Translations under genes and position numbers: made by a program
Origin: Alphaproteobacteria bacterium
GTDB taxonomy: Bacteria; Pseudomonadota; Alphaproteobacteria; Bin95
DNA: 64,000 bases
NCBI GenBank assembly: GCA_963665325.3
Contig: OZ224045.1
Coordinates: 2,400,001 to 2,464,000 of the forward strand
Reading direction: 5' to 3'
Notes under the pieces: generated by a model
Databases searched by the model: none
What the model saw: only the letters and a program-made list of their open reading frames with translations
Told to the model about the DNA's origin: nothing
Part shown: one piece after another, positions 19,229 to 36,502 of the stretch
How positions within the stretch are numbered: position 1 is the stretch's first letter
Layout: each line of letters begins with the position of its first letter

Positions 19229-19557
19229 TTTCCATTATCTACCAATGCTTTACGATGTGTATCGTATCACCTGCACAGGAAGCATCCAGTTCGCCCGCAA
19301 TTGTACCGTAAGCGGATTTTCCTCAACTCTGAGTCCAGCGCACCATGGGCGCATTCTGTCCTTGGCAACTTCCTGCACGAGCCATCCTGCACATGCCGCC
19401 TCGGCCCTTCGCGCGTCGTTGAAGTGGGTAGTGCAGGGTACGAGGTTGCGGGCCAAGGTATCAAGCGGTCGGCAATTCTTCCGATGTGGGCCTGACCTGT
19501 CCCCGAGGCGCTTCTCTTCCGGTTCTGCGGTGTAGTTACTCCCCTGGTTGAAGACGG

Positions 19558-19582
19558 TGGCTGGTTTGCTCCGCCGTTGACA
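19558..19582 (-). mobile_element. Orphan IS21-like terminal inverted-repeat remnant
   Basis: Minus strand TGTCAACGGCGGAGCAAACCAGCCA resembles IS21-family ends; no istA/istB follows. Confidence 0.45.
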
Positions 19583-19641
19583 CCAGCACCGCCGGTATTG
19601 GCCGAGCCGCCAGGTCGTCCGAATAGGCGGGGCCACCTCAC

Positions 19642-19670
19642 TTGGGGAAGTTGCCCGCCTCTGTCATAAT
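19642..19670 (+). promoter_or_regulatory. Candidate sigma70 promoter for a leaderless smt transcript
   Basis: TTGGGG-N17-CATAAT with extended -10 TG; ATG lies 6 nt after the -10; no SD visible. Confidence 0.45.
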
Positions 19671-19676
19671 GCTCAC

Positions 19677-20708
19677 ATGGCTCGTTCTTCCGCCAAACGG
19701 GCGGCTTCCCGCTCGCTCGCGAATCTAGCTCCGGACGACGTGAAGTCCGTGGTGGACGACTACGCGGCGATTTACGACGCCGGCGAGCAAGGCAGGAGAG
19801 AGCAGTACCGCTCGCTCGTAAATCATTATTACGACCTTGTGACCGACTTCTACGAGTTCGGCTGGGGCCAGTCCTTTCACTTCGCGCCCCGGCGCCGGGG
19901 TGAGAGCTTCAAGGCGTCGCTGCTCAGGCACCAGCATTTTCTCGGCGACCGGTTGTCCCTGGAGCCGGGGATGCAGGTGCTCGATGTGGGATGCGGGGTC
20001 GGCGGGCCGATGGGCAATCTGGCGCGCTATTCCGGAGCCGGCTTTGTCGGCATCAACAACAACACCTACCAGATCGAGCGCGCCAAACATCACACCCGGG
20101 ATGTCGGGTCGTTGTGCCGCTTCATCCACGGCGACTACATGCGGATTCCCGAAGGAGACGATTGCTACGACGCCGCGTTCGCCATCGAGTCCATGCCCCA
20201 CGCGCCGGACAAGGCGGGGGCGTTCCGCGAAATCCTGCGCGTCCTGCGCCCGGGCGCCTGTTTCGCGGGTTACGAGTGGTGCCTCACCGACGATTTCGAC
20301 CCTGAAAACGCGGAGCACCAGTGGATCAAGAACGAGATCATGGTCGGGGATGCGCTGCCGGAAATCGCCTCCATGCCGGAGATTTGCGACGCCTTGCGCA
20401 CGGCCGGGTTCGAACTGCTGGAAGCCAAGGACCGCGCCCCCGAGTCGGACCCCGGGATGCCCTGGTACCGCGCCCTGCAGGGCCGCGATCTCACTCTTTC
20501 CAGCATCCCGCGCACGCCTTTCGGTCGGGCCCTCACCAATCTGACGCTGCGGGTCGGAGAGAGGCTGCGGCTGTTTCCGGAGGGTTCCCGCGCGGTCAGC
20601 ACGCTGCTGAATGCGGCGGCGGACGCGCTGGTCGAAGGCGGCAGGACCGGCATCTTTACGCCGATGTTCTTCTTCCTCGCCCGCAAGCCCCTGCGCCCGG
20701 AAGACTGA
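19677..20708 (+). CDS. smt: Sterol C-24 methyltransferase (ERG6/SMT family)
   Basis: NHYYDLVTDFYEFGWGQSFHFA (region I), LDVGCGVGGP (II), GINNN-YQ, IESMPHAP (III), LRPG-YEW (IV), C-terminal LVEGG-GIFTPMFFFLARKP. Confidence 0.93.
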   Translation: MARSSAKRAASRSLANLAPDDVKSVVDDYAAIYDAGEQGRREQYRSLVNHYYDLVTDFYEFGWGQSFHFAPRRRGESFKASLLRHQHFLGDRLSLEPGMQVLDVGCGVGGPMGNLARYSGAGFVGINNNTYQIERAKHHTRDVGSLCRFIHGDYMRIPEGDDCYDAAFAIESMPHAPDKAGAFREILRVLRPGACFAGYEWCLTDDFDPENAEHQWIKNEIMVGDALPEIASMPEICDALRTAGFELLEAKDRAPESDPGMPWYRALQGRDLTLSSIPRTPFGRALTNLTLRVGERLRLFPEGSRAVSTLLNAAADALVEGGRTGIFTPMFFFLARKPLRPED

Positions 20709-23700
20709 CCGAAGCCGCTTCGGCGGCAAGGCGGACAGCCGGAATCGACCGGTCCCGGCGGCGGCGCTCGTAAAGACCGAGCGCGTGCAGCGGGAAATAC
20801 TGGCGATAGAGGACGTAGTCCAGCAGGGCCGTTCGGAAGAAAACGCCGGCCATGTCCTGTTTGGGCCACGTCCCTTCTGCCTCCTGCGTGTCCAGCAAGA
20901 ACCTGGCGCCCCGCGAAATAGCGGCCCAATTCGAGTCGCCCGCCTCAAGAAGCGCGATCAGCGCCCAGGCGGTCTGGATGACCTGGCTTTCCTCGTGAGA
21001 GACATAGCGGCCGGTCAGGCACCCGCTGTGATGCTCGCCCCAACCGCCGTCGTCCCGCTGGCGCTCCAGCAGCCAGCGGCAGGCCGAACGCAGCGCCGGA
21101 TCGCCGGGAGACGCCCCGGCGGCAAGAAGACCTCTGACTCCGAACAGGGTGCCGTAAATGAACTGAACGCCCCATACGCCGCGCCACGACCCGTCGGTCT
21201 CCTGGGTCCGGCGCAGCCACGAATCGGCCCGGGAGACGGCATCCGCCACTGCCCCATTTGCGATTCCGGGACAGTGCTCCCTGCACGCGCAGAGCGCCGC
21301 GAGGCAGGACGCGGTACATTCGACAAACGAATGCTCGGTCATCGAGTCGCCGAACATCTCGGCGGGATTCAGCCACTCCAGGCCGAAAGCCGAGCGTCGC
21401 GCCTCGTAGCTGCCGAAGCCGCCGTCGCGGTTCTGGCCGCGCAACATGAACCCCACCGCATCGCCCAGCGCGGCGCTGTCTGCATCGGCGCCCCGGGCGG
21501 CGACAATCCCGAGCACCGCCTCCGCGGTGCAGTCGCTCACCGGCCAGCCATGCCATCCCCCGGCAAAACACCATCCGCCCCTGGGGTCGGTGCGGTAAGC
21601 CTCGCGAAACCCTTCGAAGCTGGTGTCGATCTGCTCGCCCAGCAGGAAACCGGCTCCGCGCCCGAGTGCGTCCCCGACCCCGGCGGGCTCGGGCAGCGCC
21701 GCCAGCGCCTGCAGCGCGAACCCGGTGTCCCAGGAGGCGCTTCTCGCACCGGTCACACGCGCTCCCTGCTCCTCGTCCTCCCAGATCCAGCCGTCCAGCT
21801 GCGCGAGCGCCTCGTGAAAGTCGGGGTCGTCCGGATCGTGGAGCCACAAGGCAAGGATGTTGAGGAGACCGCTGACCGGGGAGATACTGGTGTGGCTGGT
21901 GGTTTGCAGCTCCCACTTTATGCGCCGGACCATGTCTTCCGCGCATCGGGCGCGCAGGCGTTTGCCGTGGAACCGTTCGAACAGCCGGGCAAGCCCGTAT
22001 CCGATCTTGAGCCAGGCGCTCGGCCGCGCGTAGAGGTCTGCATCCCGCAAGCGGTTGCGGGATGCAGAAAAATCGACGCCGGCAAAGCCCTCCGGGAACA
22101 GTTCCTCCCGCAAGGAGGCGATCTCGGGCGTGACGGGCGCCTGGAACCGGCGCGCGTAAATCGCCGCCATCGCCATGTAGATCAGCCGCGTATGGCAGTA
22201 CCAGTTCGAGGGGTGCAAAGGTATCCGGCGCGGCAGGCTCCAGAGCTCCGGCAGAACCGCGGTCACCCCTCGCCAGTCATAGAGGTTGAGAAGCGCCAGC
22301 CAGAACTTCCCCCAGCTCGGAATGGCGAGAACCCCCTCGGCCTGCAGGAACCGCCGGGCCGGCGTGACCAACGGATCGTCCCGCTCGACACCGAGCAGTC
22401 TCGCCGCGACATAGACGAGCGCGGTGACGAACAGGTGCGGCGGCGAATGCTCGTGCAGGCCCCATGAGCCGTCTTCGAGACGGGTCCGTTCGAAGGAGCG
22501 CAGCACACGCCGGCGCCGCCCGGGCTCCAGCGGCCGCCCGATAATGCAGTGCAGCAGCGCATATTGCGCGGTGAGCATGGGGCACCAGACCATCTCGCCT
22601 TCCCAGGCCCCGTCCTCTCTCTGTAGACTCAAAAGGCGCGCGGCTGCGCTCCTCAATGCCGGACCGGCGTCGGGCGATTCGATTTCCTTCGGGCCGGCAG
22701 GCCTGGAGGATTCGACGCCCGGAGACATGGAGTACAGGAACGCGCGGGCCAGTCTGTTCCGGGTCTGCCTGCTCTCCTCCCGGCCCTCGCGACTCGCTTT
22801 CCGCAGCTGCCGAACGCCGCTCTGGAGCCACCAGATGCGAATGGCGAGCGCCCTGAAAATGGCCCGGGTCCGATGCGAAGCGAACCGGCGGAAGGAGAAC
22901 GGATTCTCCCGGGTCAGCGCCCGGGTCACCGTTCCGCAAAATGCGAGAGTCATGCCGATCGCGGAGCGGTCCTCGCAGGCGAGTATCCGCGTGGTCCGGT
23001 CCCGATACGCTGGATTCGCCCGCCAGCCTCGGTAGATCGCGGATCTGAGGGCGACTGCTTCCACGCGATGATCGGCGAAGACCTCGTAGAGCCCCATTGC
23101 GAGGAACTCGGGAATGCGGGTCGCCCGGAAGCGTTCAGCGGTGAAGTCCCGAAAGCGCTCGTTCTCGGCGAGCGTCAGCGCATCGCCGAAACCAAGCGTC
23201 ATGCCGACCGCCGTCATGGGATGGTAGTGCCCGGCCGCGTCGCCGATCAGAACCCGGCGCGGGCTTCCGTATGTGACGCGCGGCCTCAGCTGATTGGCCG
23301 CCGCATGGAATTGGCCCGCCCGCAACGCCTCGACGAAGGCCGGCCCGAGGGCCCCCGGCAGCAGCCCGGCGCAGGATTCCGACAGGAAGGCAACCCGGTC
23401 CCGGGGCGTCCAGCGGTCCAGCGGAAGATCGACGATGACCCGGACGCAGCCGTCGGCCAGAGCGTATATGAGAATCGGACCCGGCCCGCCCAGCACCACA
23501 TGCCCGTAGCCTTCGAAGGGCAAGCCCGCTTCGCCTATCGTGACCCCCAGCATTCGGGAGCATAGCATCGGGTCCGTGGACAGACCCAAAGATTGGCGCA
23601 CGATCGAGGCCCGGCCGTCGGCACCGACAATGCGCGCAGCGGCTATGGAGCGTTCGGCGCCGTTTGCCGAGAAGGTAACGCGCTCGTCATCGACCGCACT

Positions 23701-24090
23701 GACCCGCGCGTGGGAAATGAAATCGACGTCGGCTTCGTCCTCGATGGCTTCGCGGAGGCTCGAGACGAGCAGCGCATGATCGCATGCCAGACCGCGGGAC
23801 CCGTCCGGATAGGGAAGCAGGATCGGATCTGAGCCGTCCTCCGGGAACACCGCAAATCCGTTGCCCGGCGTGCTTCGGGGCAGCGTGTCGATGTCTATCC
23901 CGATGTCGCGCAATATCCTGACGGCCGGCGGATGCAGCCACTCGCCGGCCAAACGCCCCGACGCCTTGGGATTGGCTTCGAGGAGGGCCACCCGGGCACC
24001 CTTGCGCGCATGGGCGAGCGCGCACAGGCTCCCTACCGGGCCCGCGCCGACAATGGCGACATCGTAAGGCCGCTCGGCGGCGCCGCTCAT
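20656..24090 (-). CDS. osc: Squalene epoxidase-oxidosqualene cyclase fusion protein (1144 aa)
   Basis: N-terminal: GAGPVG, GEWLHP, GADG-S-VR, GDAAGHYHPMTAVGMT. C-terminal: QREDGAW, IPSWGKFWLALLNLYDW, WYCHTR, GWPVSDCTAE, several QxxDGxW repeats, YRQYFP. ATG 24090 overlaps the cyp51 stop (ATGA). Confidence 0.93.
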   Translation of the reverse strand: MSGAAERPYDVAIVGAGPVGSLCALAHARKGARVALLEANPKASGRLAGEWLHPPAVRILRDIGIDIDTLPRSTPGNGFAVFPEDGSDPILLPYPDGSRGLACDHALLVSSLREAIEDEADVDFISHARVSAVDDERVTFSANGAERSIAAARIVGADGRASIVRQSLGLSTDPMLCSRMLGVTIGEAGLPFEGYGHVVLGGPGPILIYALADGCVRVIVDLPLDRWTPRDRVAFLSESCAGLLPGALGPAFVEALRAGQFHAAANQLRPRVTYGSPRRVLIGDAAGHYHPMTAVGMTLGFGDALTLAENERFRDFTAERFRATRIPEFLAMGLYEVFADHRVEAVALRSAIYRGWRANPAYRDRTTRILACEDRSAIGMTLAFCGTVTRALTRENPFSFRRFASHRTRAIFRALAIRIWWLQSGVRQLRKASREGREESRQTRNRLARAFLYSMSPGVESSRPAGPKEIESPDAGPALRSAAARLLSLQREDGAWEGEMVWCPMLTAQYALLHCIIGRPLEPGRRRRVLRSFERTRLEDGSWGLHEHSPPHLFVTALVYVAARLLGVERDDPLVTPARRFLQAEGVLAIPSWGKFWLALLNLYDWRGVTAVLPELWSLPRRIPLHPSNWYCHTRLIYMAMAAIYARRFQAPVTPEIASLREELFPEGFAGVDFSASRNRLRDADLYARPSAWLKIGYGLARLFERFHGKRLRARCAEDMVRRIKWELQTTSHTSISPVSGLLNILALWLHDPDDPDFHEALAQLDGWIWEDEEQGARVTGARSASWDTGFALQALAALPEPAGVGDALGRGAGFLLGEQIDTSFEGFREAYRTDPRGGWCFAGGWHGWPVSDCTAEAVLGIVAARGADADSAALGDAVGFMLRGQNRDGGFGSYEARRSAFGLEWLNPAEMFGDSMTEHSFVECTASCLAALCACREHCPGIANGAVADAVSRADSWLRRTQETDGSWRGVWGVQFIYGTLFGVRGLLAAGASPGDPALRSACRWLLERQRDDGGWGEHHSGCLTGRYVSHEESQVIQTAWALIALLEAGDSNWAAISRGARFLLDTQEAEGTWPKQDMAGVFFRTALLDYVLYRQYFPLHALGLYERRRRDRSIPAVRLAAEAASVSLPGAGACGRGRRTSA

Positions 24091-25496
24091 TGGAAAACGC
24101 CCGGCTCCGAACGACGACGGTAGCGGACCCGGCACGGTGTCTCGGGGCCCGTCACCCAGCTGCCGTAATTCGGACGCGGAAACCTGGTACCGGGAAGGAA
24201 GTCGAAGCGGTCGAGCAGAACGGTCCAGATCGCCTTGAGCTGCATGTAGGCGAAATTCTTTCCCATACACGCGTGTTTGCCGCCGCCGAAGCCGATCAGG
24301 GCGTAGTGATGCTGTTTGTCCTCGCTGGCGGGCGGCGCGAAACGGTCCGGGAAGAACTGCTCCGGGTCGGCGAACACATGGGGCAAGCGGTGGGAGACCG
24401 CCGGCGACACCATGGCCATGGCGCCGGCGGGCACGATATTGTCCCCATAGCGCAGGGGGCTGAGCACCTTGCGGATCAGCAATATCAACGGCGGGTGCAG
24501 CCGCTCGCACTCGCGCACGGCATTCTCCAGCACGGTTTGCTGCCGGAGACTCGAGATGCCAATGGCTTCCGCCTCGCGGTAGACGTCGTGCATCTCGTCT
24601 CTGACCCGCTCCAGGTAGGATGGCGCCCTCAGGAGCTCAAGACCGGTCCAGGTCGCGAGCACCGCGCTCGTGTGCTGGCCCGCGAACAGGACCGTCAGCA
24701 GGATCCCCGTTATCTCGTCGTCGCTCGGGGCGCGTCCGTCCTTGTAGCGCGCGTCCATGAGCGTCTGCATGAAATCGTCGGGGCTGGCTCCGAAACGGCG
24801 GCGCGCCGCCATGATCCCGCCGAAGATCTCGGCCACTTTCCGCCGCGCCCTGTCGCGGGTTCGATGGGCGGCTGTAGGAAGTTTGGGGAGAAAGAACCCG
24901 AGCGTGTTTATGCCGTTTTGCAGGTCGTGGTACGCCTCGGCGAAACCGGCGTCCACCTGGTCGCGGACTTCCTGCCCGATGAGGCAGCGGCTGGCGATCT
25001 TAACGGTGAGCTCGTTCATCGCGTGCGGCAGGTCGATTTCCCCGTGCTCGCCGAGGGCATCGGCAAACCGCTTCGTTTCGTCGAACATGATGAGCGCGAA
25101 CCTGCGCATGGCGGCTTCGCGGAGCGCCGGAAACAGGAACCCCAGCTGCTCGGACATGATTTCGGGGGAAGCGTCATAGGCCACGCCGCGTCCGAAGATG
25201 GGTATCGTGAACCGGTAGACGGCCTTGGCGTTCAGCTGTTCCTCGGGCGCCCTGAAATAGAAGTCGTGGGCTTCGGGCCCGGCGAAGAGAACGAAATCGC
25301 GGGGACCGAGCCTGAAGCGGAAGAGCTCGCCATGCTCCCGCCAACCGCGGCTCAGCATGGCGACGGGATCCCTTTGAAACTCCGCCAGATGGCCCAGAAG
25401 CGGCCACCCGCCCGCGAGTTGGGGAGCGCCCTGCTCCACACGCGGCGCGGGCTCCGCCGGATGCAGGGTTGCCGGATTGTGGGACCGGTTCGCCAT
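24087..25496 (-). CDS. cyp51: Sterol 14-alpha-demethylase, cytochrome P450 CYP51
   Basis: CYP51 signature VYRFTIPIFGRGVAYD, I-helix FAGQHTS, ECERLHPP, heme motif FGGGKHACMG. Confidence 0.92.
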   Translation of the reverse strand: MANRSHNPATLHPAEPAPRVEQGAPQLAGGWPLLGHLAEFQRDPVAMLSRGWREHGELFRFRLGPRDFVLFAGPEAHDFYFRAPEEQLNAKAVYRFTIPIFGRGVAYDASPEIMSEQLGFLFPALREAAMRRFALIMFDETKRFADALGEHGEIDLPHAMNELTVKIASRCLIGQEVRDQVDAGFAEAYHDLQNGINTLGFFLPKLPTAAHRTRDRARRKVAEIFGGIMAARRRFGASPDDFMQTLMDARYKDGRAPSDDEITGILLTVLFAGQHTSAVLATWTGLELLRAPSYLERVRDEMHDVYREAEAIGISSLRQQTVLENAVRECERLHPPLILLIRKVLSPLRYGDNIVPAGAMAMVSPAVSHRLPHVFADPEQFFPDRFAPPASEDKQHHYALIGFGGGKHACMGKNFAYMQLKAIWTVLLDRFDFLPGTRFPRPNYGSWVTGPETPCRVRYRRRSEPGVFQ

Positions 25497-25504
25497 CCTC
25501 GCCC

Positions 25505-26605
25505 TCAATGGATAAACGGCAGCATCGAAAAGCGCGCCTGCTGCCTGTAGCGCTCCCACAGCTCGCCATATTTGGCGCGGCAGCGCCGCTCATCGCGCGT
25601 CGAGCGGTGCCATAGCAGGCCCGCCAGCCACGCCGGCAACAGGAAAGGGAACCAGGACGCAAGTCCGGTAGTCAGCGCGAAAGCGAGGTAAACGCAAATC
25701 TCGCCGGTATAATTGAGATGGCGTCCGATGCCCCAGAATCCGGAGACCAGCAGGCGCCCGTCCAGGGTCCGGGCGGGTTGTCCCCAGATCGCGATATCGG
25801 GGTCACGCTTGAAGCGGTGCTTCTGCTGGTTGGCGCCGCGGAAAAGCCAGAAGCCGAAGACGAACAACAGGGCGATCGCCGCCGCGGCGGCCGGAGACAG
25901 CGGTTCCGGTGCGTGAACCAGCCACCAGCCGGGCAGACAGTAGAAGAACGGTACCAGCACGTAGTCGCCCCAGACCAGCATCCACCCGAAGCGCTCGCTG
26001 ATGATGTCCCAGGTGTGGATCATTCCGTGCTCGAACTGGAAGTAGTTGAGCACGTAGAGGAACGTGAAGACCTGATAGAGCGCCATCGCCAGGGTAAGCT
26101 CGCCGTAGGTCTCGTACTGCACGACGGCAAACGATGCGTTGATCAGCGCCAGGCCGATGAGGGAGGGGCGGTAGCTGAAGAACTTCAGGTCCAGCCCGAG
26201 CCAGACCGGGCCGGCATCGACACCGCAGAAGAACCCCCGCAAGAATCCCGGCGATGCGTTGGGCGCCAGCGCCCCCCGCAGATACAGCCAGCCGGCGAGA
26301 GCAAAGGCGAATCCGTTCGCGGCCACGAACAGGGCCGCAAAATGGGTATGCAGCACGGATAGGGAGAACCAGCCGAAGGCCTGCGCGAAGCCTGCCGCGA
26401 GCGCGGCAGCCAGGAACAGCGCGAGGCCGTTGAGCTTGTAGACGCGCTGCCCGCCCTCGGCATCCGGCCCCGCGATGCGGCGGCCGGGCAGCAGCATCGA
26501 TCCCAGGAACAACACCGCGACAAACACCAGCGCCATCGCTGCCGCTTCGAGCAACGCCCCGCCAGAAAGCGCGGACGACAGGTTGGACGCCTCAGACGTG
26601 GGCAT
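25505..26605 (-). CDS. ERG4/ERG24-family sterol reductase, probably delta-14 reductase
   Basis: YKLNG, DLKFFSYRP, TWDIISERFGWMLVWGD (FACKEL-like), LLVSGFWGIGRHLNYTGE, RDERRCRAKYG. Confidence 0.88.
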   Translation of the reverse strand: MPTSEASNLSSALSGGALLEAAAMALVFVAVLFLGSMLLPGRRIAGPDAEGGQRVYKLNGLALFLAAALAAGFAQAFGWFSLSVLHTHFAALFVAANGFAFALAGWLYLRGALAPNASPGFLRGFFCGVDAGPVWLGLDLKFFSYRPSLIGLALINASFAVVQYETYGELTLAMALYQVFTFLYVLNYFQFEHGMIHTWDIISERFGWMLVWGDYVLVPFFYCLPGWWLVHAPEPLSPAAAAAIALLFVFGFWLFRGANQQKHRFKRDPDIAIWGQPARTLDGRLLVSGFWGIGRHLNYTGEICVYLAFALTTGLASWFPFLLPAWLAGLLWHRSTRDERRCRAKYGELWERYRQQARFSMLPFIH

Positions 26606-27692
26606 CGCCCTTCTCCGGTCCACGCGCCAGATACTCGCGCCATTTGCGCACGGTCACTTCCTGAAAGGCCTTCACCACCGGATTGAACTCGACGGGACGG
26701 GCGTCCCAATGTTTCTCGTAGCCCTCCTGCTCCGCTTCGAGCGCAAATTGGTCCTGGGCGAGCAGGGGGCCGATAAGCACACGGTTGGAGATATTCATGA
26801 CCGCGGTCATGGCGAAACGGGGAATGCGCACCGGGAGGAAAGGTATCTTCAGCGACTTGAAGTAGAACAGGAAGAACACCCGGGTGGTGCGCTCATCCAC
26901 AGGCAGTACGAAAAGCCAGTGCTTTATCTCGTCGTCGGTGTTCGACCACTGGTAGGGATATTCGTAGCAGAGCTTCATGCTGTTGGTGTCGAGCCGCTTG
27001 TGGTCCACGAACAGTCCGGAGATGCGCCCGCGCCCGACGCGGGTGTCATAGGCGAGATGCACATCGTCCCCGACGGTCTCGCAGGAGACGAGCTCGGCTC
27101 CGTCGAAGGGCCGGTAGCGGCGGTGCAGATGCGCGTGGGTGAAGTCGCTCACATTGTCGATCACCATCGAGTGATGCGCCGACCAGGTGAAGCGCAGCGG
27201 CACGCAGGTCCACCGGCCAGGGCCCTCAAGCTCGGGAATGTCCGGAATCCGGCGCATTTCGGCCTGCTCAGGATCCCCGGGGAAGAGCCAGATCAGGCCG
27301 TAGCGGACCTTCACCGGATAGGTCTTGAGCGCGAGCCGCGGAAAGCTTCGCCCGTTGCCGTCATACGGGACCCCGGCCGGACGCTCTTTTCCACCGTACT
27401 CCCAGCCATGATAGGCGCATACCAGCCGGCACCCTTCCACATGGCCGATGGAGAGCTTGAGCTGGCGATGCGCGCAGCGGTTCTCGATCGCCTGGAAGGA
27501 GCCGTCCGTTCCGCGAAACAGCGCAATCGAATGTTTCCAGAAGACGACCTCGACCACCGTCCCCGGCTTGACCCGGCGCACTTCCTCGACCGCATACCAG
27601 TAATTCGGGTCCATACCCGCGGCGCGCGCCTGCTGACGCAGGGTGCCCGCGTCCTCGAACCCGGGCGGGTGTGCACTCGGCGCCGGCGTCAT
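26592..27692 (-). CDS. sdmA: Rieske non-heme iron oxygenase, probable sterol C-4 demethylase (SdmA-like)
   Basis: CAHR and CAYHGW Rieske ligands, DNVSDFTHAHLH mononuclear Fe site. The SdmA assignment rests on the sterol operon context and coupling to the SDR. Confidence 0.72.
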   Translation of the reverse strand: MTPAPSAHPPGFEDAGTLRQQARAAGMDPNYWYAVEEVRRVKPGTVVEVVFWKHSIALFRGTDGSFQAIENRCAHRQLKLSIGHVEGCRLVCAYHGWEYGGKERPAGVPYDGNGRSFPRLALKTYPVKVRYGLIWLFPGDPEQAEMRRIPDIPELEGPGRWTCVPLRFTWSAHHSMVIDNVSDFTHAHLHRRYRPFDGAELVSCETVGDDVHLAYDTRVGRGRISGLFVDHKRLDTNSMKLCYEYPYQWSNTDDEIKHWLFVLPVDERTTRVFFLFYFKSLKIPFLPVRIPRFAMTAVMNISNRVLIGPLLAQDQFALEAEQEGYEKHWDARPVEFNPVVKAFQEVTVRKWREYLARGPEKGDAHV

Positions 27693-28849
27693 GTCGGGCT
27701 CCCGTCGGGCATTGCCTGCAAGCCCTGGGGCGGTGCGGGACTTTCCGCCTGTCTCGCAGCGCACCGACCCGGGACGTCCGCACGGGGTCGTTTCGCCCGC
27801 GGATTCCCGATCGCGTTGCGGCCGTAGTGAAACGCATAGGCCTCATGGACCGCATCGCGGATGCCGGTCGGCCGGTAGCCGAGTTCCCGTTTCGCCTTGC
27901 CGAGATCGGCGTGGCGGCACTTCTTCAGCAGGCGTATGGCGCCGGGGGTGAAGCGCTGGGGAAAGCCCGGGTGGAACCGGCTCAGGTAAAAGCTCGCCAT
28001 CTCCGAAAAGACGAGCATCAGGCGGGTCGGAATCCGCCGGCGCGGCCGCGGGATTCCCGAGACCTCCTCATAGAGGCCCACGATCTCCGAGATGGTCTTG
28101 TACTCGCTGCTGAAGATGTATTTCTCGCCCGAGCGACCGAGGCGCATGCACAACAAATGTCCTTCGACAATGTCGCGTGCCGCGACAAACTCGAAACCGC
28201 CGTCGATATAGGCGCGGAGCTTGCCGTCGGTGTAATCGCACAAGGTTCTTCCCAGTCGCGAGGGGAAGAAATCGGCGCCTCCCACCACAGCACAACATGT
28301 TGCGACCACGACATCCTGTCCCGCCGCCGCGGCGCGCCAGCATTCCTGCTCGACGAGCGACTTGCTGCGCTCGTAGGGCATCGTGCGCTCCATGGGATAG
28401 AACAGCATCGTCTCGTCGCTGGGCGCGGACGGGTCGTCCAGATCGTAACCGACGGCGCTGAAGGAGCCGGTCACCACCACCCGCCCGGCCTCGGCTTCCC
28501 GCGCCGCCTGCAGCACGTTTCGGGTGCCGAGGACATTGCACTCGAAGATTTCCCGGCGGTGGGCGCGGTTGCCTTCGATGGTCGAGATCTTGGCTGCGAC
28601 ATGATAGACGCCCCGACAGCCGGCGAGCGCCTGCCTTACGGCATCCAAGTCCCGAATGTCGCCGAACGCGTGTTCGACATCGAGGCCTTCCAAAGCCTCG
28701 TTGTTGTCCTCATGCCTCAACAACACCCGGACCCGCACGCCGTCGTCGAGCAGCCGGCGCACGAGATTGGCGCCGACATGCCCGGCCGAACCGGTAACGA
28801 AAACGGGCGGCGTCGATGAGCCCGGCGGTATGCTCGATGCTGAAGCCAT
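27689..28849 (-). CDS. sdmB: Extended SDR / 3-beta-HSD-like NAD(P) enzyme, probable SdmB-like C-4 decarboxylase-reductase
   Basis: VTGSAGHVG, GDIRD, HVAA, NVLGTRNV, YERSK; ATGA overlap with the Rieske gene. Confidence 0.7.
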   Translation of the reverse strand: MASASSIPPGSSTPPVFVTGSAGHVGANLVRRLLDDGVRVRVLLRHEDNNEALEGLDVEHAFGDIRDLDAVRQALAGCRGVYHVAAKISTIEGNRAHRREIFECNVLGTRNVLQAAREAEAGRVVVTGSFSAVGYDLDDPSAPSDETMLFYPMERTMPYERSKSLVEQECWRAAAAGQDVVVATCCAVVGGADFFPSRLGRTLCDYTDGKLRAYIDGGFEFVAARDIVEGHLLCMRLGRSGEKYIFSSEYKTISEIVGLYEEVSGIPRPRRRIPTRLMLVFSEMASFYLSRFHPGFPQRFTPGAIRLLKKCRHADLGKAKRELGYRPTGIRDAVHEAYAFHYGRNAIGNPRAKRPRADVPGRCAARQAESPAPPQGLQAMPDGSPT

Positions 28850-29214
28850 CGGAGAGGAGTTCCGCTATGGGGAACGCGGGTGCGCGCCCGTTCGTGCTCC
28901 CCAATAGTGCGGCATCTTCATGACTGTACCTCCATCTTCGGGATGACCCCCGCGCCGACCGACCGGTGCGATGCCCAACAAAGCAGAAACTAGATGGCTC
29001 AATACTATAATGTCCAAGACGATTTAATCATATTGTTCATGAGATTTTCCAATGGATAACCCTGCCGCGGCGCACTCCGAAAAGCGGGTTTCCATTTCCG
29101 TCCCGACCCTCTCCAGACGCGTCCTTGAATAAGGAAAAACGCCCAAATGTCAATAATGCTACTGAGTCAGGCGCTCAACTTCCCGTGCTCCGCCAGAGCT
29201 GCCGCAGGCACCGG

Positions 29215-29595
29215 CTGCATGCCGCCAATGTTCAGGACCGCGACGGCGCGCCGGACGTGCTGAAATCCATACGCAATGCATGTCCCAGGCTCGGCCGCCT
29301 GTTCGCCGATGACGCCTATGCCAGGCCGAAACTGCGCGGCGCCTTCGACAGGATCGGAAAGCGGTCGCTCGAGATCGTCAAGCGTTCCGACAATGCAAGC
29401 GGCTTCGACGTCATCTCCAGGCGATAGGTCGTCGAACGCACCTTTGCATGGCTTGGGCGCTGTCGACGGCTCCCACGGGAACCCGAAAAATCCATCGCCA
29501 CCAGCAAGGCTTGGACGGCCATCGCACACATCCACCTCACAAACCGGCACCTCAAAAGGCCATGTCATCATTGACCGGCTTCCGAGCCGGGCTCT
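29215..29595 (+). pseudogene. IS5-family transposase C-terminal remnant
   Basis: HAANVQDRDGA, LFADDAY, GFDV-RR*VVERTFAWLGRCRRL with in-frame TAG at 29425; IR-like GAGCCGGGCTCT follows. Confidence 0.8.
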
Positions 29596-31313
29596 TCGGC
29601 AGCCGAGAAGAACACACTTCATGACGATCTACCTGATGGGAGGCGAGGTCCCTGTCTCGCTTCCGGCATCCAAGACGGGTATTAACCGGCTGAAACCCAC
29701 CCCGGTGAAAACTTCCTACCGCGGCCTCGGTGCACGCCGCCTACGCCCCCGACTCCCGCCAACAGCGGAACGAGAAGTCCGCGGCGCTTGACACGACCCG
29801 GGAAACACACACATTAGGTCCGACGGTGCCTGGACCGGTTGGGTAAACAGCGACGGCGCGAGCACTTGGCCGGATACGCAGATCGACGCCTTGCAACGAT
29901 AGCCGAATTATACGGTGCCCATTGCTGGAGGCCAATCGCGTCAACAGAGAGGCTTTTGATATGAACTCACCCAGTCCTTTGAACCTTCCGGAAGAGCTAA
30001 TCGTAATGCTTCTCAACGAGCAGACCGGATATTTTTACCAAGTAGAAGGCTGGACATTGAACTGCGTCATCATTGGTGCAGTCCTGGCCGATCTATCACT
30101 GAAATCGCGTATCGATACAGACGAAGAATCGCTCTTCTTGGTCGACTCAACTAAAACAGGAGAACCGATACTCGATCTATGCTTGGAAGAAATCAAATCG
30201 CACCCCGATCAACAGAACACACGTTACTGGTTAGAGAAACTTACGGTTCATTCGGAAACCATTATCGATGCTACGTTAGAACGCTTAGTTAACTTAAAGA
30301 TTTTTACGCATCATGATGGCGGATTCTATACACTCAACCACTCCAACTGGCATAACATCAAGTCCGAGATTGAACAAGTGATCTTTACCGATACTATTCC
30401 CAGTCCCAGAGATTCTTTGATAATTGGTCTTTTGAACGCTTGCAACATCATTCGCTTTATCTTCGAACTTGACGATGACACGGAAGTCAAAATCAAATGG
30501 ATTTGCAACTTGGAAGCAATTAATCGAAAAATGTCCTCCAGCCTGGAACAGGTTATAATTACTCCTGCTATACGATCCACGCCTCTCAGTAAAAAGATTC
30601 CAAAGATTTCTCTGAAGGACCTTTTATCAAATCGACGCTTCTGGGACGGAAATGTTCCAGCACTAATTGCAAGTATCGCTAACCAACATGGCCCCGTCTT
30701 CCAGTTGCAGCTGCCATTTAAGAAGCCGACCACCTTTCTGGCCGGGCCCGAAGTTAATCGATGGGTACATCGGAATGCTCGTACGCATATGACTTCCGGA
30801 AATTATTTTCGCGAGTTAGAAGAGGCCTGCGGCGCACAAGGCTTAATCACGTCCCTGGATGGCGCCGACCACTTTCGACTCCGCAAAGTGATGAGGAGTT
30901 ATTACTCGGCAAGAAAATTCATTGAAAGACTAGATGACGTGTGCAAATTACTCCGGCAATATATGTCAAATCAGAACTGGCAACCCGGATCTGTAATAGA
31001 AGTAAAGCGCGATACTCGTCTGATGATTAACTTACAAATGACTCAAATTACCGTCAGCACCGATTCGCAGGATATTTTTGAAGAACTGGTCGCGTGGAAG
31101 GAAAGAGCGTCCAATTGCTACGTTGGGCATCTGATGCCGAATTTCATGGCACGCACTCCGGCGATGAACAAGCGCTTCAAACTTCTTGGTGCCTTTATGC
31201 GACGAATCGAACAAAACCACACACCCTTTCAACGCGCGGGGGCGGTTCGGGAACTGGCGGACGATGTGTTCAGTTTACATCGCAGCGACCCCCAGTTTCT
31301 TCCGGAACAGAAT

Positions 31314-32080
31314 CTAGGTCGTGGACTCATAAGCACGTAGCCAGAGTCTGATAGTTGCGATCTTGATCATGGCCAGGAAGTTGGCCGCGAGCTTTTCGTA
31401 GCGGGTGGCGATGCGGCGGAACTGCTTGAGCTTGTTGAAGGCGCGTTCGATACGATTTCGCAATCGATACAACAGTTTGCTGAAGGCGTGCCTGGTCTTC
31501 GCGCCTTCTCGGTCGGGGATGATCGCGACGGCATCGCGTTGCTCGATCAGCTCACGGATCCATTTGGCGTCATAGGCCTTGTCGGCGATCAGGAAACTGT
31601 CGGGCGGCAGGTTCGCCAGCATGGCGCCGGCGGTCGTGCTGTCGTGTGCCTGGCCGGGGCTGAGGTCGTAGCGGATCGGCAGACCGGTAACGTCCGCCAC
31701 GGCGTGGATCTTCGTGGTCAGTCCACCACGGGAACGACCCATGCAACGATCCGGACCCCCCTTTTTGCACCCGCCGCGTGCTGGTGAACCCGGACGCTCG
31801 AACTGTCGATCATCTGCACGTTGCTGTCGTAAGCCTCCACCACCGCATCCATCAACTGATCCCAGACGCCCTTCTTGCGCCAGCGGTTGAACCGGTTGTA
31901 GCAGGTCGTATAAGGCCCGTAGCGCTCCGGGAGGTCACGCCACGGCGCCCCCGTGCGAAGCACCCACAGAATGCCGTTCAACACTCGGCGATCGTCCACC
32001 CGAGGGACGCCGCGGGGCTTGTTCGGCAGCAGCGGCTCAATCACACGCCATTCGAAGTCCGTCAGATCGTAGCGGCCCAT
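31314..32080 (-). CDS. IS5-family transposase, OrfA+OrfB joined by a frameshift
   Basis: OrfA LTDFEW, WRDLPERYG, IDSSSVRVH; OrfB GRSRGGLTTKIH, ADKAYD, RNRIERAF. Slippery AAAAAGGGGGG at 31756-31766; the stop codon is supplied by the target TA. Confidence 0.9.
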
Positions 32081-32153
32081 CTCCAAGCTCCCTGAGGTTG
32101 GGAGCTTGAATCACATCTTCGCAAATCACGAAACACCTTATGGGTACACGACC
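31317..32153 (-). mobile_element. Complete IS5-family (IS427-group) insertion sequence, 837 bp
   Basis: 17-bp IRs GGTCGTGGACTCATAAG / GGTCGTGTACCCATAAG; TA duplication at 31315-31316 and 32154-32155 (CTAG target). Confidence 0.93.
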
Positions 32154-32843
32154 TAGTATTCATGTTGGCCGCTGCACCGACGCTTCAAAGCATTTATGTC
32201 GGCGACCTTTTGGGCTTTGCGCTTTACGAAATGGCCAAACATCCTGAGCTCGCAGCGCAGATCAGGGAGGAAGCAAACATCTTTTTTGATGACGAGGGCG
32301 TGGACCGTGGCAAATTTCTGCAGCAATCCGATACGGCTTCACGTCGTTTTCTTATGGAGTGTTTGCGGATGTACCCCATTGTCTGTATGCAAGCCCGGAA
32401 CGTGGCGAACTCCTGCACGGTGGAGAATTTCGCTTTGCCTCTCGGGGAACAGGTGATAATCGCGCAATCCGCAGCTCACTATATGGATGACAGTTTTCCG
32501 GATCCTTACAAGTTTGACATTGATCGCTATTTGCCTCCACGCAACGAGCATCAAAGGCGCGATTACGCGCCATACGGTCTTGGGACGCATATGTGTGTGG
32601 GGTACGTATGGATGAATTTGCAAATGATTGTGACTCTACTGATGATCGCATATCACTTCGAGTTCGCGCCGCCGCCGGAAAATCACAAGCTCAAGATCAG
32701 TCCATTTCCTACCTTGTCAGTTTCAAAAAAGCTCAAGCTCCGCATTGCAAATAGGCTTCATGAATTATCGGCGTGAAACCTTTGTTTACCTTTCACTGAT
32801 TGCCCCAATGCAGACCTGACGCAGAGGAGCTTCGTAGGTAGCC

Positions 32844-35189
32844 ATGCCGCTAATCGCCAAAGGTGCCAAATCGCGTTTTTTTAACCTAATTGTGACTCGA
32901 TGCGTATGGACGGTAGTCGCCTCGGTCGCGGTCATCGCGGCCCTGGCGGCGGGAATGCAGCATCTGGTAGTAGTCGATGTGGGCATTCGAAATCATTTCA
33001 ATGAAAATGATCCACAACTGGCCAAATTGGAACAATTCGAAGAAGCGTATGCAGTGTCGGACAGCGTGCTTGTTGTTGTCGCACCCACCGGCGACACGAT
33101 TTTTACGCGCGAGGCACTGCTGACCATTGAGAAGCTAACCGATGCGCTGTGGTGGACGCCGTATGCTACCCGTGTTACCTCAATCACTAATCACTCACAT
33201 ACGGAGGGAAACGAAACGGGATTGGTTGTCGAGCCGTTGGTCAAAGACGCGACCTCGCTTGACAAAATGGAAATCGATAGAATTCAAACGATTGCACTTT
33301 CCAGTCAAGAGATAGCCGGTCGCCTGGTTTCTCACGATGGCCGTCTGGCGGGGTTGGTTGTTAGTCTAGCTCTTCCCGAAGAGGATCGGGAGAAGACAAA
33401 GCTTGAAGTGGTCAACGCACTCTCCGGTCTCATCAATGAGCAGCGCGGCGCATACTCGGACGTCGAATATCACATCTACGGGGAATTGTTGCTGGATCAG
33501 ACGATCCGCAAGGCGCTGGATGAAGATATGTCCGTTCTTGCGCCGATTGCGTTTGTGACGATGATGCTGGTTGCCATCGTCGTATTGCGTTCGGTTTGGG
33601 GTGTTTTAGGCATATTGACGATGCTGATAGCGGTTATGACTTCTGGCTTCGGTTTCGCAGGCTGGGTCGGTCTAAAGTTTTTTGCGGAGAGCGCAGCAGC
33701 ACTATTCGTGTTAATGGCCATCGCGATCGCGCACTCCGTACACTTGATCCAAGGAATGACGAAGGGCATGCATGACGGGATGGAGCGCAGGGCCGCGATC
33801 ATTCACGCACTGGAAATCAATGGCCGTCCGATTTTTTTGACTTCGATCACCACCGCGATTGGGTTTTTGAGTTTAAATTTTTCAGAAATGCCTCCGTTTC
33901 GAGTGATGGGAAATATTGTGGCGATTGGTGCCATGTGTGCGTTTGTTTATTCGGTTACTCTTTTGCCAGCACTGTTGGCAGTGATGCCTATGCGGGCTCC
34001 AGTCAAGGGGGAAGCTGGGGTAGAGGTTTTTGACCGCTTGGGCAGTTTTGTTGTTTCGAAGAGCACCGCGCTGCTTTGCGTTTTTGCTGTGCTGTCGTTG
34101 GTGAGCGCAATTGGAGTCTCGAGAATTGAGTTAAACGATAATAATCTAAAGCTACTTGATGAAAGTTACGAGCTGCGGAGGTCTGCGGACTTCATCAACC
34201 GGAATTTTTCTGGTTTAGATACATTGGAGTATTCATTGAGCTCCGGGCGAGAGGGGGGAGTTACTGACATAGACTATCTGCGTCAAGTCGATGCATTCGC
34301 TCAATGGCTACGGGGGCAACCGGAGGTCTCGCACGTGACCTCGATTGTCGATATACTGAAACGGTTGAACCAAGATCTGCATAGTGGGGCTGATGGTTCC
34401 TATGCTCTTCCCGAGAACTCGGACCTTGCGGCTCAGTACCTGGTTCTTTATGAGTTTTCTCTTCCGGTCGGGCTCGATTTGAACAATCTGATCAAGTTTG
34501 ACCGTTCAGCAACTCGCATGACAGTTGTGATCGAGTTCATGTCGGTCAGGGAGCAGATAGAACTCGATGACCGTGCGTTAGCTTGGTTGCAAAAGAATGC
34601 GCCCGAAATTCAAACCGGAGCGACCGGCGTTACAATGGTCAGTGCTTATTCAGTGATGAGGAATATCGTCAAGATGTTGATCGGCACCATTATCGCGATG
34701 TCCATCGTTTCGGTTATTTTGATTTTTGTCTTTAAGAGTGTACGTTTGGGACTATTGAGTTTGGTGCCTAATTTTCTGCCAGCCATTATCGCGATGGGGG
34801 TATGGGGTTATGCTGTTGGGACGGTTAGTATTGCCGCATCGATTGTTACGGCGATAGCGTTTGGTATTATCGTGGACGATACCATTCATTTGTTATCGAA
34901 TTACCTGAGAATGCGTGATGAGGGCAGGGCGCCTGCGGAGGCAATCGTACCGACTTTCAAACAGGTCGGTAAGCCGCTGTTGGTTACCACGTTGATTTTC
35001 GCATTGGGATTTTTGGTCTTCGGTGCATCGGGCCTTTCGACCAATCAGACACTCGGGGTTTTGGTGGGTCTCACGATTGTCATTGCATTGGTCGCTGATT
35101 TCCTTTTGTTCCCGGCGCTGCTTGTGGTGCTCGATAGTCGGAGATCGCGATCGAATGAGCCTGCTCCGGATAGGCCGCAGGGGGTGTAG
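32844..35189 (+). CDS. MMPL/RND-superfamily transporter (candidate lipid/sterol exporter)
   Basis: Two repeats of TM + periplasmic loop + 5 TM; LTSITTAIGFLSL, NFLP, GIIVDDTIH, ADFLLFPALL. Confidence 0.88.
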   Translation: MPLIAKGAKSRFFNLIVTRCVWTVVASVAVIAALAAGMQHLVVVDVGIRNHFNENDPQLAKLEQFEEAYAVSDSVLVVVAPTGDTIFTREALLTIEKLTDALWWTPYATRVTSITNHSHTEGNETGLVVEPLVKDATSLDKMEIDRIQTIALSSQEIAGRLVSHDGRLAGLVVSLALPEEDREKTKLEVVNALSGLINEQRGAYSDVEYHIYGELLLDQTIRKALDEDMSVLAPIAFVTMMLVAIVVLRSVWGVLGILTMLIAVMTSGFGFAGWVGLKFFAESAAALFVLMAIAIAHSVHLIQGMTKGMHDGMERRAAIIHALEINGRPIFLTSITTAIGFLSLNFSEMPPFRVMGNIVAIGAMCAFVYSVTLLPALLAVMPMRAPVKGEAGVEVFDRLGSFVVSKSTALLCVFAVLSLVSAIGVSRIELNDNNLKLLDESYELRRSADFINRNFSGLDTLEYSLSSGREGGVTDIDYLRQVDAFAQWLRGQPEVSHVTSIVDILKRLNQDLHSGADGSYALPENSDLAAQYLVLYEFSLPVGLDLNNLIKFDRSATRMTVVIEFMSVREQIELDDRALAWLQKNAPEIQTGATGVTMVSAYSVMRNIVKMLIGTIIAMSIVSVILIFVFKSVRLGLLSLVPNFLPAIIAMGVWGYAVGTVSIAASIVTAIAFGIIVDDTIHLLSNYLRMRDEGRAPAEAIVPTFKQVGKPLLVTTLIFALGFLVFGASGLSTNQTLGVLVGLTIVIALVADFLLFPALLVVLDSRRSRSNEPAPDRPQGV

Positions 35190-35295
35190 TTGGGGATTTG
35201 GGTCGTTTATGGCGTTGATGAGGCGCGAAGCGGGATTTGTAAGGTAGACGGCCTGATTGAGCCGGCTGTGTTCGTGGCATTTCCACGGCAGGAGT

Positions 35296-35576
35296 GTATG
35301 CATCCTCCGAAGGCCGCAGGGGTAGGTAGGCTGCCTTTGAGCGGTGGGTGCGTGGGAGGCGGATTGGTTTGTGGCGTGGGCCGGCTTATGTGGCTTGATC
35401 GGGCCTCTGCTCCGGAACCGAGTTCCAGGGAAGGAGTTCGTCGAGTCGGCTCTGCGGGGTCTCGGCGATCGGGCCGAGAACATCGGCGAACCAGGCCTGC
35501 GGATCGACGTTGTTTAGCTTGGCGGTGCCGATCAGCGTGTAGATCGCCGCCGCCCGGATGCCGCCGCGGCCGGCCG
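35296..35576 (-). mobile_element. IS66-family right-end remnant
   Basis: TnpC C-terminus GGIRAAAIYTLIGTAKLNNVDPQAWFADVL-RLDELLPWN, then GCGGCCTTCGGAGGATGCATAC resembling an IS66 terminus. Confidence 0.8.
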
Positions 35577-36377: not shown

Positions 36378-36502
36378 CGCTCTCGTCCGCCGACCGCTCC
36401 GGTTACGCCTTCCATCTTGCTCCCGCCGCCGACCATCCTCAACCGCGCTCCGGAGCGCCGCCGATGAGCATTCCCCTGTCGGTCATGTTATTCGTAAGCG
36501 CC

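Follow-up and report, generated by a model that had tools for sequence, protein, structure and literature searches.

The 64,000-nucleotide stretch of DNA analysed here, which we call the window, is C1:2400001-2464000 of an alphaproteobacterial genome, C1 being a contig of 2.57 Mb. At positions 19677-28849 it holds six genes for the synthesis and alkylation of sterols. Five of these lie on the minus strand and encode a short-chain dehydrogenase/reductase (SDR), a Rieske oxygenase, an ERG24-type sterol C-14 reductase, the sterol 14-alpha-demethylase CYP51 and a fusion of squalene epoxidase and oxidosqualene cyclase (SE::OSC), and the sixth, on the plus strand, encodes a sterol C-24 methyltransferase (SMT). 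We hold with high confidence that this segment represents, complete and intact, the horizontally mobile 'cluster of steroid genes' known from sponge-associated bacteria, sited in the chromosome of an uncultured-type alphaproteobacterium. To its right lies a module comprising a GPP34-P450 fusion gene (GPP34_L), split by an insertion sequence (IS), and a gene for an RND-superfamily transporter (Table 1).

Table 1. Genes and elements of the window discussed in the text, in window coordinates; domain names are those of Pfam.
Feature	Position	Strand	Length	Domain matches and remarks
SMT (ERG6/SMT-family sterol C-24 methyltransferase)	19677..20708	+	343 aa	Sterol_MT_C PF08498 (4e-22); PF08241 (3e-17)
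SE::OSC fusion	20656..24090	-	1144 aa	FAD_binding_3, SE, SQHop_cyclase_N and SQHop_cyclase_C in one open reading frame
CYP51 sterol 14-alpha-demethylase	24087..25496	-		p450 (2.5e-55)
ERG24-type sterol C-14 reductase	25505..26605	-		ERG4_ERG24 (8e-72)
SdmA-like Rieske oxygenase (C-4 methyl oxidation)	26592..27692	-		Rieske and VanA_C
SdmB-like NAD(P)-dependent SDR (C-4 decarboxylase/ketoreductase step)	27689..28849	-		Epimerase and 3Beta_HSD; first gene of the operon
DDE transposase remnant	29125..29427	+		DDE_Tnp_1 (1.3e-6); within the 1.07-kb spacer between operon and module, GC 0.60
GPP34_L, 5' part	29922..31317	+		GPP34 (1e-21); GPP34 domain and N-terminal P450 half
IS5-family insertion sequence	31318..32152	-	835 bp	DUF4096 (6e-33); DDE_Tnp_1 (2e-21)
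GPP34_L, 3' part	32157..32776	+		p450 (1.2e-27, profile 282-453); C-terminal half with haem-binding Cys loop
RND-superfamily lipid transporter (HAE3/HpnN-like)	32844..35189	+	781 aa	MMPL (3.5e-37); Patched SSD (2.5e-7); Sterol-sensing (4e-6)

An earlier note on this DNA had described a tightly coupled five-gene operon of these families in this order, and the description holds: all frames are open and Pfam and NCBIfam scans agree with the assignments. The two ATGA overlaps it had placed at 27689-27692 and 24087-24090 are read directly on the minus strand, where the Rieske start overlaps the SDR stop and the CYP51 stop overlaps the SE::OSC start. The likely starts are the ATG codons at 28849 (SDR), 27692 (Rieske), 26605 (ERG24), 25496 (CYP51) and 24090 (SE::OSC); the open reading frames (ORFs) of ERG24 and CYP51 reach GTG codons at 26623 and 25559, and that of SE::OSC is open over 20656-24510. 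The intergenic spacers of the operon are short or negative. The ERG6-family methyltransferase that the note saw converging on the operon is likewise there, as an intact plus-strand frame with a Sterol_MT_C domain, and the 3' ends of SMT and SE::OSC overlap by 53 bp. In a genome with a GC content of 0.67 and a GC content at third codon positions (GC3) of ~0.85, the six sterol genes have GC3 values of 0.79-0.84, compared with 0.85 for the flanking hydantoinase gene and 0.89 for the flanking adh_short gene, and the cluster is thus ameliorated to the composition of its host.

The enzymes that would act downstream of the cyclase are assigned by their closest relatives. The best PDB match of CYP51 is 6mcw, the CYP51 of Methylococcus capsulatus (1e-102 over residues 46-487), and of the 60 PDB sequences listed the top 56 are without exception CYP51s/14-alpha-demethylases. 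For the ERG24-type reductase the best PDB match is 4quv, a delta14-sterol reductase (8e-64); we infer that it acts on the delta-14 bond, rather than at delta-7 or delta-24(28), because its gene adjoins CYP51. The best NCBIfam match of the Rieske protein is SdmA (NF052579, 4beta-methylsterol monooxygenase; 1e-120) and that of the SDR is SdmB (NF052578; 3.5e-88, 296 bits, the next being HpnA with 230 bits). As both models outscore all others by a wide margin and the two genes are neighbours with coupled translation, we regard the proteins as a putative SdmAB-like pair, though their scores do not establish them as strict equivalogs. In the SdmA/SdmB matches, as in CYP51, the window resembles the pathway of M. 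capsulatus. It differs from that organism in that its CYP51 is without the ferredoxin fusion of the M. capsulatus enzyme, its squalene epoxidase is fused to the cyclase and an SMT is present.

The fusion protein carries both cyclase domains of the alpha-alpha toroid fold and is the single triterpene cyclase of the genome. Its epoxidase half matches human squalene monooxygenase (PDB 6c6n, 6e-26, fusion residues 7-304) and its cyclase half human lanosterol synthase (LSS; PDB 1w6k, 1e-130, fusion residues 486-1115), with the catalytic VSDCTAE motif kept at fusion residues 851-857. On NCBIfam models it scores 736 bits as an oxidosqualene cyclase (TIGR03463), against 265 bits as a squalene-hopene cyclase.

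In the SMT the motifs of Regions I-IV are kept, Region I reading YEFGWGQSFHF and Region II DVGCGVGGP. Yeast ERG6 numbering was carried over by motif offset, the offset being the same as that of the published SMT of an Aplysina symbiont (Ap_sym_SMT G225). The list of residues conserved in functional SMTs given in a preprint (Brown & Welander 2025, in the portion drawn on here) has 25 positions, and at all 21 of those that were mapped, E195 and G217 among them, the window SMT has the conserved residue; the C-terminal motif G352/F357/P359 (G....F.P) is also present. According to the same portion of that preprint, a Gly at yeast position 249 is necessary, and not sufficient, for propylation, and G249D mutants still methylate. 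The window SMT has an Asp (Asp225) at this position and a Phe at yeast position 83, the latter favouring repeated methylation. Because propylating enzymes need a Gly where this one has an Asp, a 24-methyl or possibly a 24-ethyl product is likelier than a 24-isopropyl one; the enzyme is predicted to be non-propylating, and 24-isopropyl sterols would not be expected from it. Among 96 related SMT sequences position 249 is D in 48, N in 32, I in 7, G in 5 and T in 2. The five with Gly (L092:9759, L093:8664, L010:2300, L025:10001 and L038:9479) are candidate propylating enzymes on the strength of this residue, and those of L092 and L093 adjoin a GPP34_L gene.

In a tree of 127 unique bacterial SMT sequences, the window SMT falls in the clade of OSC-cluster SMTs (86 sequences, support 0.99). 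The earlier note had spoken of a eukaryote-type SMT, a term that is apt at the level of the family and at that level only. The possibility that the cluster makes sterols while this methyltransferase is inactive on them, or acts elsewhere, for example at C-4 in the manner of STRM-type enzymes, has to be weighed here. Dinoflagellates and nematodes have enzymes of the SMT family that methylate C-4 (PMC9136925, in the part drawn on). Of 24 metagenomic SMTs, four left the substrates they were given unmethylated (in the sections of PMC10070321 considered here), and four further SMTs that have all the conserved residues were likewise inactive in vitro (Brown & Welander 2025 preprint, same portion). 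The known C-4 methyltransferases are, however, eukaryotic, the other 20 of the 24 tested enzymes alkylated C-24 in vitro (PMC10070321, same sections), and the window SMT combines a full set of mapped conserved residues with a place inside the large OSC-cluster clade. We therefore judge an SMT that is idle or acts at another position to be improbable.

The genome to which the cluster belongs is 5.58 Mb in 5 contigs and is rated 100% complete and 4.2% contaminated. That its owner is an alphaproteobacterium, as the note had supposed, is borne out by kinship: the flanks of three loci labelled 'Alphaproteobacteria bacterium' (L003-L005) match this genome, elsewhere in it, at 88-91% nucleotide identity. 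The note had also named a chimeric assembly as something that could undo its reading. The contamination rating and a GC drop at 29.9-35.2 kb that looks foreign might be taken to suggest an assembly chimera or contamination from a eukaryotic host. Yet the region lies at 2.40 Mb of a 2.57-Mb contig, deep inside it, and is covered by contigs assembled from other public runs: those of run X1 cover 30 of 30 bins of 18500-37500, and those of run X13 also cover the sterol cluster, with little or no cover of 29912-34983 except for the IS. Given this position and this independent cover, a chimeric assembly is very unlikely. The operon has bacterial structure, with overlapping stop and start codons, bacterial-type C-4 demethylases and the composition of the host, and a congener (G009) has the orthologous region with both GPP34_L and the RND gene; we assign next to no probability to either form of artefact. 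One depth-5 contig of X13 (90% likeness) seems to join 19207 to 35565 with 28 other letters between them, the first position being at the 5' end of the hydantoinase gene and the second just downstream of the adh_short gene. Such a join, which we take as a lead only, would be consistent with an empty site lacking all 16.4 kb of sterol genes, GPP34_L and RND gene.

The SMT is represented in more than 120 database clusters at at least 76% identity. We scanned one genome per species for relatives of the SMT, which gave 168, and took the best 80 (70-96% identity) as loci for comparison. All 80 are titled as metagenome-assembled genomes (MAGs), and some bear taxon names of sponge symbionts (Porisulfidus, Poriferihabitaceae). 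Their labels include Alphaproteobacteria/Defluviicoccus/Rhodospirillales, Nitrospirales, Nitrospinaceae, Thermodesulfobacteriota, Binatia, Gemmatimonadota/Palauibacter, Acidobacteriota, Gammaproteobacteria (Porisulfidus, Pseudohongiella, Arenicellales), Rhodothermales and Poriferihabitaceae. All five operon genes are found in 54 of the 80 loci, at 61-96% amino-acid identity; these loci fall under nine taxon labels, with one unclassified in addition. In 52 the five genes are colinear, and the same convergent SMT is found in 33. The recurrence of the five-gene order in 52 loci from other genomes argues that the arrangement has not arisen by chance. The fusion itself is also the rule, SE::OSC being one open frame in 55 of the 57 loci with a match and the exceptions being a truncated copy and a copy at a locus end.

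The sharing of the five genes across taxon labels at these identities points to horizontal transfer of the cluster between phyla. At the nucleotide level the window is ~77-91% identical over ~9 kb to MAGs of Nitrospirales, Thermodesulfobacteriota and Binatia, and little or nothing outside the cluster can be aligned with them. Within the order we compared 37 species genomes of one family, 17 from the genus of the host and 20 from the two other genera. SE::OSC is found in 10 and the SMT in 11 of the 17 genomes of the host's own genus, and neither is found in any of the 20 from the two sister genera. The distribution is patchy and is therefore of the pattern expected of a transferable island.

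Clusters of this type have been described before. Kelly 2022 (PMC9531527), in the passages that concern them, reports 'clusters of steroid genes' (CSGs) in 115 of 537 MAGs from Ircinia sponges, spread over 10 phyla, with a core of ERG24-CYP51-LSS that is preceded, in the same orientation, by a 'DFR' and a hypothetical protein, and followed at its 3' end by an SMT or FDFT1 encoded on the other strand; these passages also report purifying selection (omega 0.13-0.26 for the three core genes) and horizontal transfer. Gene for gene, the layout in the window is identical to that of the CSGs of Ircinia and Aplysina, including the ERG24-CYP51-LSS order and the convergent SMT. In the same passages (PMC9531527), however, the SDR and the hypothetical protein are not annotated as SdmB and SdmA, and the SE fusion present in the window goes without mention; the window copy differs further in belonging to a near-complete genome of 5 contigs and in having the GPP34_L-RND module alongside. 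The association with sponges that characterizes CSGs is observed here too: 0.41-0.43 of the sampled words of the stretch occur in each of six DNA runs, from as many studies, that are labelled 'sponge metagenome', X13 being one of them, and 0.84-0.87 occur in two other runs.

Brown 2023 (PMC10070321) describes sponge and environmental metagenomes in which SMT genes lie together with sdmAB and further sterol genes, concludes that uncultured bacteria are able to make side-chain-alkylated sterols de novo, which no isolate has yet been shown to do, and mentions 'fused SMO/OSC homologs' in its methods. The window agrees with these clusters in combining an SMT with sdmAB and erg-type genes; their SMTs include the 20 enzymes active in vitro (PMC10070321, same sections), and the activity of the window SMT is a prediction. 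Since the cluster type, the fusion and the implication for biomarkers were all published in 2022-2023, by Kelly and by Brown, the cluster is not a novel one.

Several observations weigh against our conclusion that the cluster is complete and intact. The SdmA and SdmB scores (403 and 296 bits) are both below the NCBIfam cut-offs of 600 bits, the TIGR03463 score of 736 bits is below its cut-off of 851, and an EBP-type isomerase was not found in the genome. When the cyclase is aligned with 1w6k, its residues 782/848/852 (fusion numbering) are Ala/His/Val at human LSS positions 381/449/453. The signatures at these positions are T/C-or-Q/V in lanosterol synthases and Y/H/I in cycloartenol synthases, so that by this alignment the window enzyme is mixed and non-canonical with respect to both, and because of this pattern its first cyclic product cannot be called. 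A fit to neither signature would also be in keeping with a cyclase that makes a non-sterol triterpenol, for example of the arborane type, and downstream enzymes that act on something other than a protosterol; a bacterial OSC that makes arborane triterpenols was reportedly described by Banta in 2017. We nevertheless consider this highly improbable. CYP51, a C-14 reductase and C-4 demethylases make sense together only for a 14-alpha-methyl, 4,4-dimethyl protosterol, and the closest PDB relative of the cyclase is human lanosterol synthase, with VSDCTAE kept.

The state of the cluster in relatives belongs with these observations. In congener G014 (L094, G014:C1:2335000-2353000) the cluster is fragmented, being without ERG24 and having only fragments of CYP51 and SMT, and GPP34_L and an RND gene are inserted inside the operon. 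The SMT of G009 has an internal TAA, and the SE::OSC of G012 is split into two pieces ~1.9 kb apart. Since relatives show such decay, the pathway is dispensable in some lineages. Contigs from RNA libraries (X20, X21) lie on SMT, SE::OSC, CYP51, ERG24, the Rieske gene, the SDR gene and GPP34_L; contigs that touch genes do not prove transcription, as DNA carry-over is possible. One may ask whether the genes in the window, intact as they are, belong to a silent pathway or one that is being lost, a recently transferred island kept by drift. Besides the decay in the same genus, this would be in keeping with an active IS, present in five full copies, that has already struck the neighbouring gene, with the transposase remnant that adjoins the operon and, weakly, with the possible empty site between 19207 and 35565 in the one low-depth X13 contig. 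It is at odds with six open frames with coupled starts, with an operon GC3 close to that of host genes (0.85-0.89), which argues for long residence, with the purifying selection on the three core genes reported in the passages cited above (PMC9531527) and, as a hint only, with RNA-library contigs on six of the genes. On balance a silent or decaying pathway appears distinctly improbable in this genome.

Taking the cluster as complete and intact, we can propose a route, supported by enzyme assignments that rest on homology and with its chemistry remaining conditional. Squalene would come from a squalene synthase encoded elsewhere, for which a candidate with TIGR01559 as its best match is found on contig C3. 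SE::OSC would convert it, in one polypeptide, by way of the epoxide to a protosterol (lanosterol, parkeol or cycloartenol), from which CYP51 would take off the 14-alpha-methyl group; the ERG24-type reductase would then saturate the resulting delta-14 bond, and the SdmA-like/SdmB-like pair would remove at least one C-4 methyl group. The SMT would alkylate C-24 of a delta-24 side chain, by one carbon or possibly by two. The end product would be a delta-8-type sterol with a 24-methylene or 24-methyl group, or possibly a 24-ethylidene one, in which a 4-methyl group may or may not be retained, a delta-8 nucleus being the likeliest end point because no isomerase was detected. A search of the genome for ERG2 gave no match, but the control matched in no genome either and the result is not evidence of absence. 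Of the earlier note's claim that the organism makes 24-alkylated sterols de novo, the gene content and the families thus stand, supported by homology, and the product itself keeps the status of a prediction.

Two genes elsewhere in the genome are of interest for this inventory. The single FA_hydroxylase-family gene, which might conceivably be a C-5 desaturase, is found at C1:2211583. A second ERG4/ERG24-family reductase is encoded at C4:374684-375823 (L086:5684-6823), next to a TauD-family gene and an amidase gene; it is 33% identical to that of the cluster, and two loci labelled Gemmatimonadota (L039, L046) have copies 72-73% identical to it less than 10 kb from the SMT. A reductase of the delta-24(28) or the delta-7 type is a possible assignment.

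To the right of the operon the segment 29.9-35.2 kb has a GC content of 0.40-0.54, down from ~0.65. Within this segment the ORFs 29922-31340 and 32162-32776 are two pieces of one GPP34-P450 fusion gene. The 5' part aligns (residues 10-466) to an intact 672-aa ORF of locus L011 whose frame runs on into the C-terminal half of the P450, the 3' part is 67% identical to the C-terminal end of that ORF, and GPP34_L is a single frame of ~670-700 aa in L011 and 24 other loci. In the window this frame is cut by the 835-bp IS, and the GPP34_L-RND module is inactivated by it in this assembly. The element has the DUF4096 and DDE_Tnp_1 domains, the terminal inverted repeats, the target duplication (CTAG, at 31314-31317 and 32153-32156) and the multiple copies of an IS5-family member. 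It is one of five full-length copies in the genome (97.5-100% identity), the others being at C1:50298-51132, C4:233440-234274, C4:732025-732859 and C4:732864-733698, and there are three partial ones; the last two full copies on C4 follow one another in the same orientation with 5 bp between them. The element appears to have been active recently. An IS-free allele is represented in two runs, X1 (DNA) and X21 (RNA library), by contigs in which exactly 839 bp are missing at this site, and in run X1 the insertion is polymorphic. In congener G009 (L095) the orthologous GPP34_L is uninterrupted and the RND gene is also present; in G010 GPP34_L has two stops. The host itself has an intact second module at C1:1.245 Mb, with a 685-aa GPP34-P450 gene (C1:1245243-1247297), an RND gene and a gene for a LolA-like protein.

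GPP34_L has a GC content of 0.46 and a GC3 of 0.50, the RND gene has a GC content of 0.51, and across the module GC3 is 0.50-0.56, compared with 0.79-0.89 in neighbouring genes. The module is compositionally foreign and the operon is host-like, which argues that the two arrived at different times. The RND protein is of the same superfamily as exporters of the HpnN/BstA type, with HAE3 and HpnN matches, a weak BstA match and matches to Patched and sterol-sensing domains; its NCBIfam scores (HAE3 188, HpnN 132 and BstA 24.5 bits) all fall below the cut-offs (752 for HpnN and 1400 for BstA), and because they do so by far we place it in a subfamily distinct from HpnN and BstA. In paralogous modules the next gene in order encodes a LolA-like carrier. 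Two further ORFs were rejected as genes: 29167-29622 ('orf151'), which is without a family match and antisense to the transposase remnant, and 35190-36467 ('orf425'), which has no Pfam or NCBIfam match and an Arg/Ala/Gly-rich translation. The true gene at the site of the latter is adh_short, at 35577-36377 on the minus strand.

GPP34_L has been described in its own right (PMC11706023, Microbiome 2025). In the main text of that paper it is reported as exclusive to sponge symbionts and proposed to bind phosphatidylinositol 4-phosphate (PI4P) and to interfere with phagocytosis. The window gene has the same domain architecture and sponge restriction as the published protein and aligns end to end with intact members, and differs in that the copy here is split by an IS and the gene is found physically paired with SMTs. 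The words 'sterol', 'steroid', 'squalene', 'lanosterol', 'cholesterol' and 'methyltransferase' do not occur in that main text (PMC11706023). We found no connection between GPP34 and SMT in the literature searched, which covered main texts. The physical linkage of GPP34_L and SMT is strong and, apparently, unreported.

Among the SMT-anchored loci, GPP34_L lies less than 10 kb from the SMT in 21 of 80 (19 of them with a full-length gene), under five taxon labels, and an RND homologue does so in 10. In the reverse direction we took 80 metagenome loci anchored on GPP34_L. An SMT is found within 10 kb in 37 of these and within 500 bp in 23, counts that, like those anchored on the SMT, come from few metagenomes and related organisms, so that the loci are not independent; the remaining 43 have no SMT, and in 25 of them the flank measures at least 1.5 kb on either side. 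Of the 80 loci, 3 carry SE::OSC, 12 the RND gene and 8 the LolA-like gene, and control proteins from the flanks of the window have matches in 0-2. A four-gene cassette of RND, LolA-like, SMT and GPP34_L genes occurs in three congeners (L091, at G013:C5:3227000-3246000, L092 and L093). The first of these genomes, G013, is 100% complete and has three SMT paralogues, and SE::OSC was not found in it. The presence of the cassette and the paralogues without SE::OSC suggests that G013 modifies sterols acquired from outside.

The SMTs that adjoin GPP34_L form a clade of their own, with 33 sequences and a support of 1.0, of which 26 are GPP34_L-adjacent and none is OSC-adjacent. It is separate from the OSC-cluster clade that holds the window SMT, a separation of labels that is inflated in this tree as the two sets of loci were picked by different anchors. 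A profile built from 26 GPP34_L proteins has bacterial CYP51 as its best solved relative (121 bits vs 102 for the next family). In the P450 part (alignment A1, L088:4244-6298) the haem Cys (C626) and the ExxR motif (E547, R550) are invariant, and around residues 480-500 the consensus is A-S-x-Y-L-G where CYP51 has A-G-H-H-T-S, the I-helix Thr being replaced by Leu. This replacement hints at unusual oxygen activation or at chemistry other than that of a monooxygenase. A Foldseek search with a structural model of GPP34_L (predicted local distance difference test score, pLDDT, 85) placed the CYP51 of M. capsulatus first, essentially tied with P450 BM3, and is uninformative as to substrate.

With an SMT within 10 kb in 37 of 80 loci and within 500 bp in 23, GPP34_L is probably a sterol-tailoring enzyme, so far as gene neighbourhood can tell. 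A caveat is that, in the table of PMC11706023, GPP34_L is listed in many more symbiont genomes than carry steroid clusters. More specifically, and only tentatively, as a reading to which we lend slightly less belief than doubt, GPP34_L may be a membrane-tethered P450 that tailors sterol side chains, instead of or besides being an effector, and that works with its own clade of SMTs, symbionts then tailoring sterols, probably those of the host, by means of a portable GPP34_L-SMT(-LolA-RND) cassette. The GPP34 domain would hold the P450 to a membrane or lipid, the P450 would tailor the substrates or products of the SMT, and the RND and LolA-like pair would move lipid. If this is so, the window would show the cassette docked, minus its own SMT, onto an operon for de novo sterol synthesis.

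The cluster in the window is one more, well-assembled case of a published phenomenon, the carriage of 24-alkyl sterol genes by sponge bacteria, and the presence of such genes in bacteria makes it harder to treat ergostane- and stigmastane-type steranes as biomarkers of eukaryotes alone. A near-complete genome makes it possible to take an inventory of the whole pathway, which comprises a single cyclase, a squalene synthase and a further ERG4/ERG24 paralogue, no C-8 isomerase having been found. To this inventory our analysis adds the prediction of a non-propylating SMT, the non-canonical signature of the cyclase, the patchiness and decay of the cluster within one genus and the linkage of GPP34_L and SMT, which connects two separately published hallmarks of sponge symbionts, steroid gene clusters and GPP34_L. 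Should GPP34_L prove to act on sterols, the effector role proposed for it would need to be revisited, and together with the adjacent SMT it could bear on how the unusual sterol side chains of sponges are made, and by which partner. Many sponge symbionts, including cyclase-less ones such as G013, would in that case remodel and traffic sterols.

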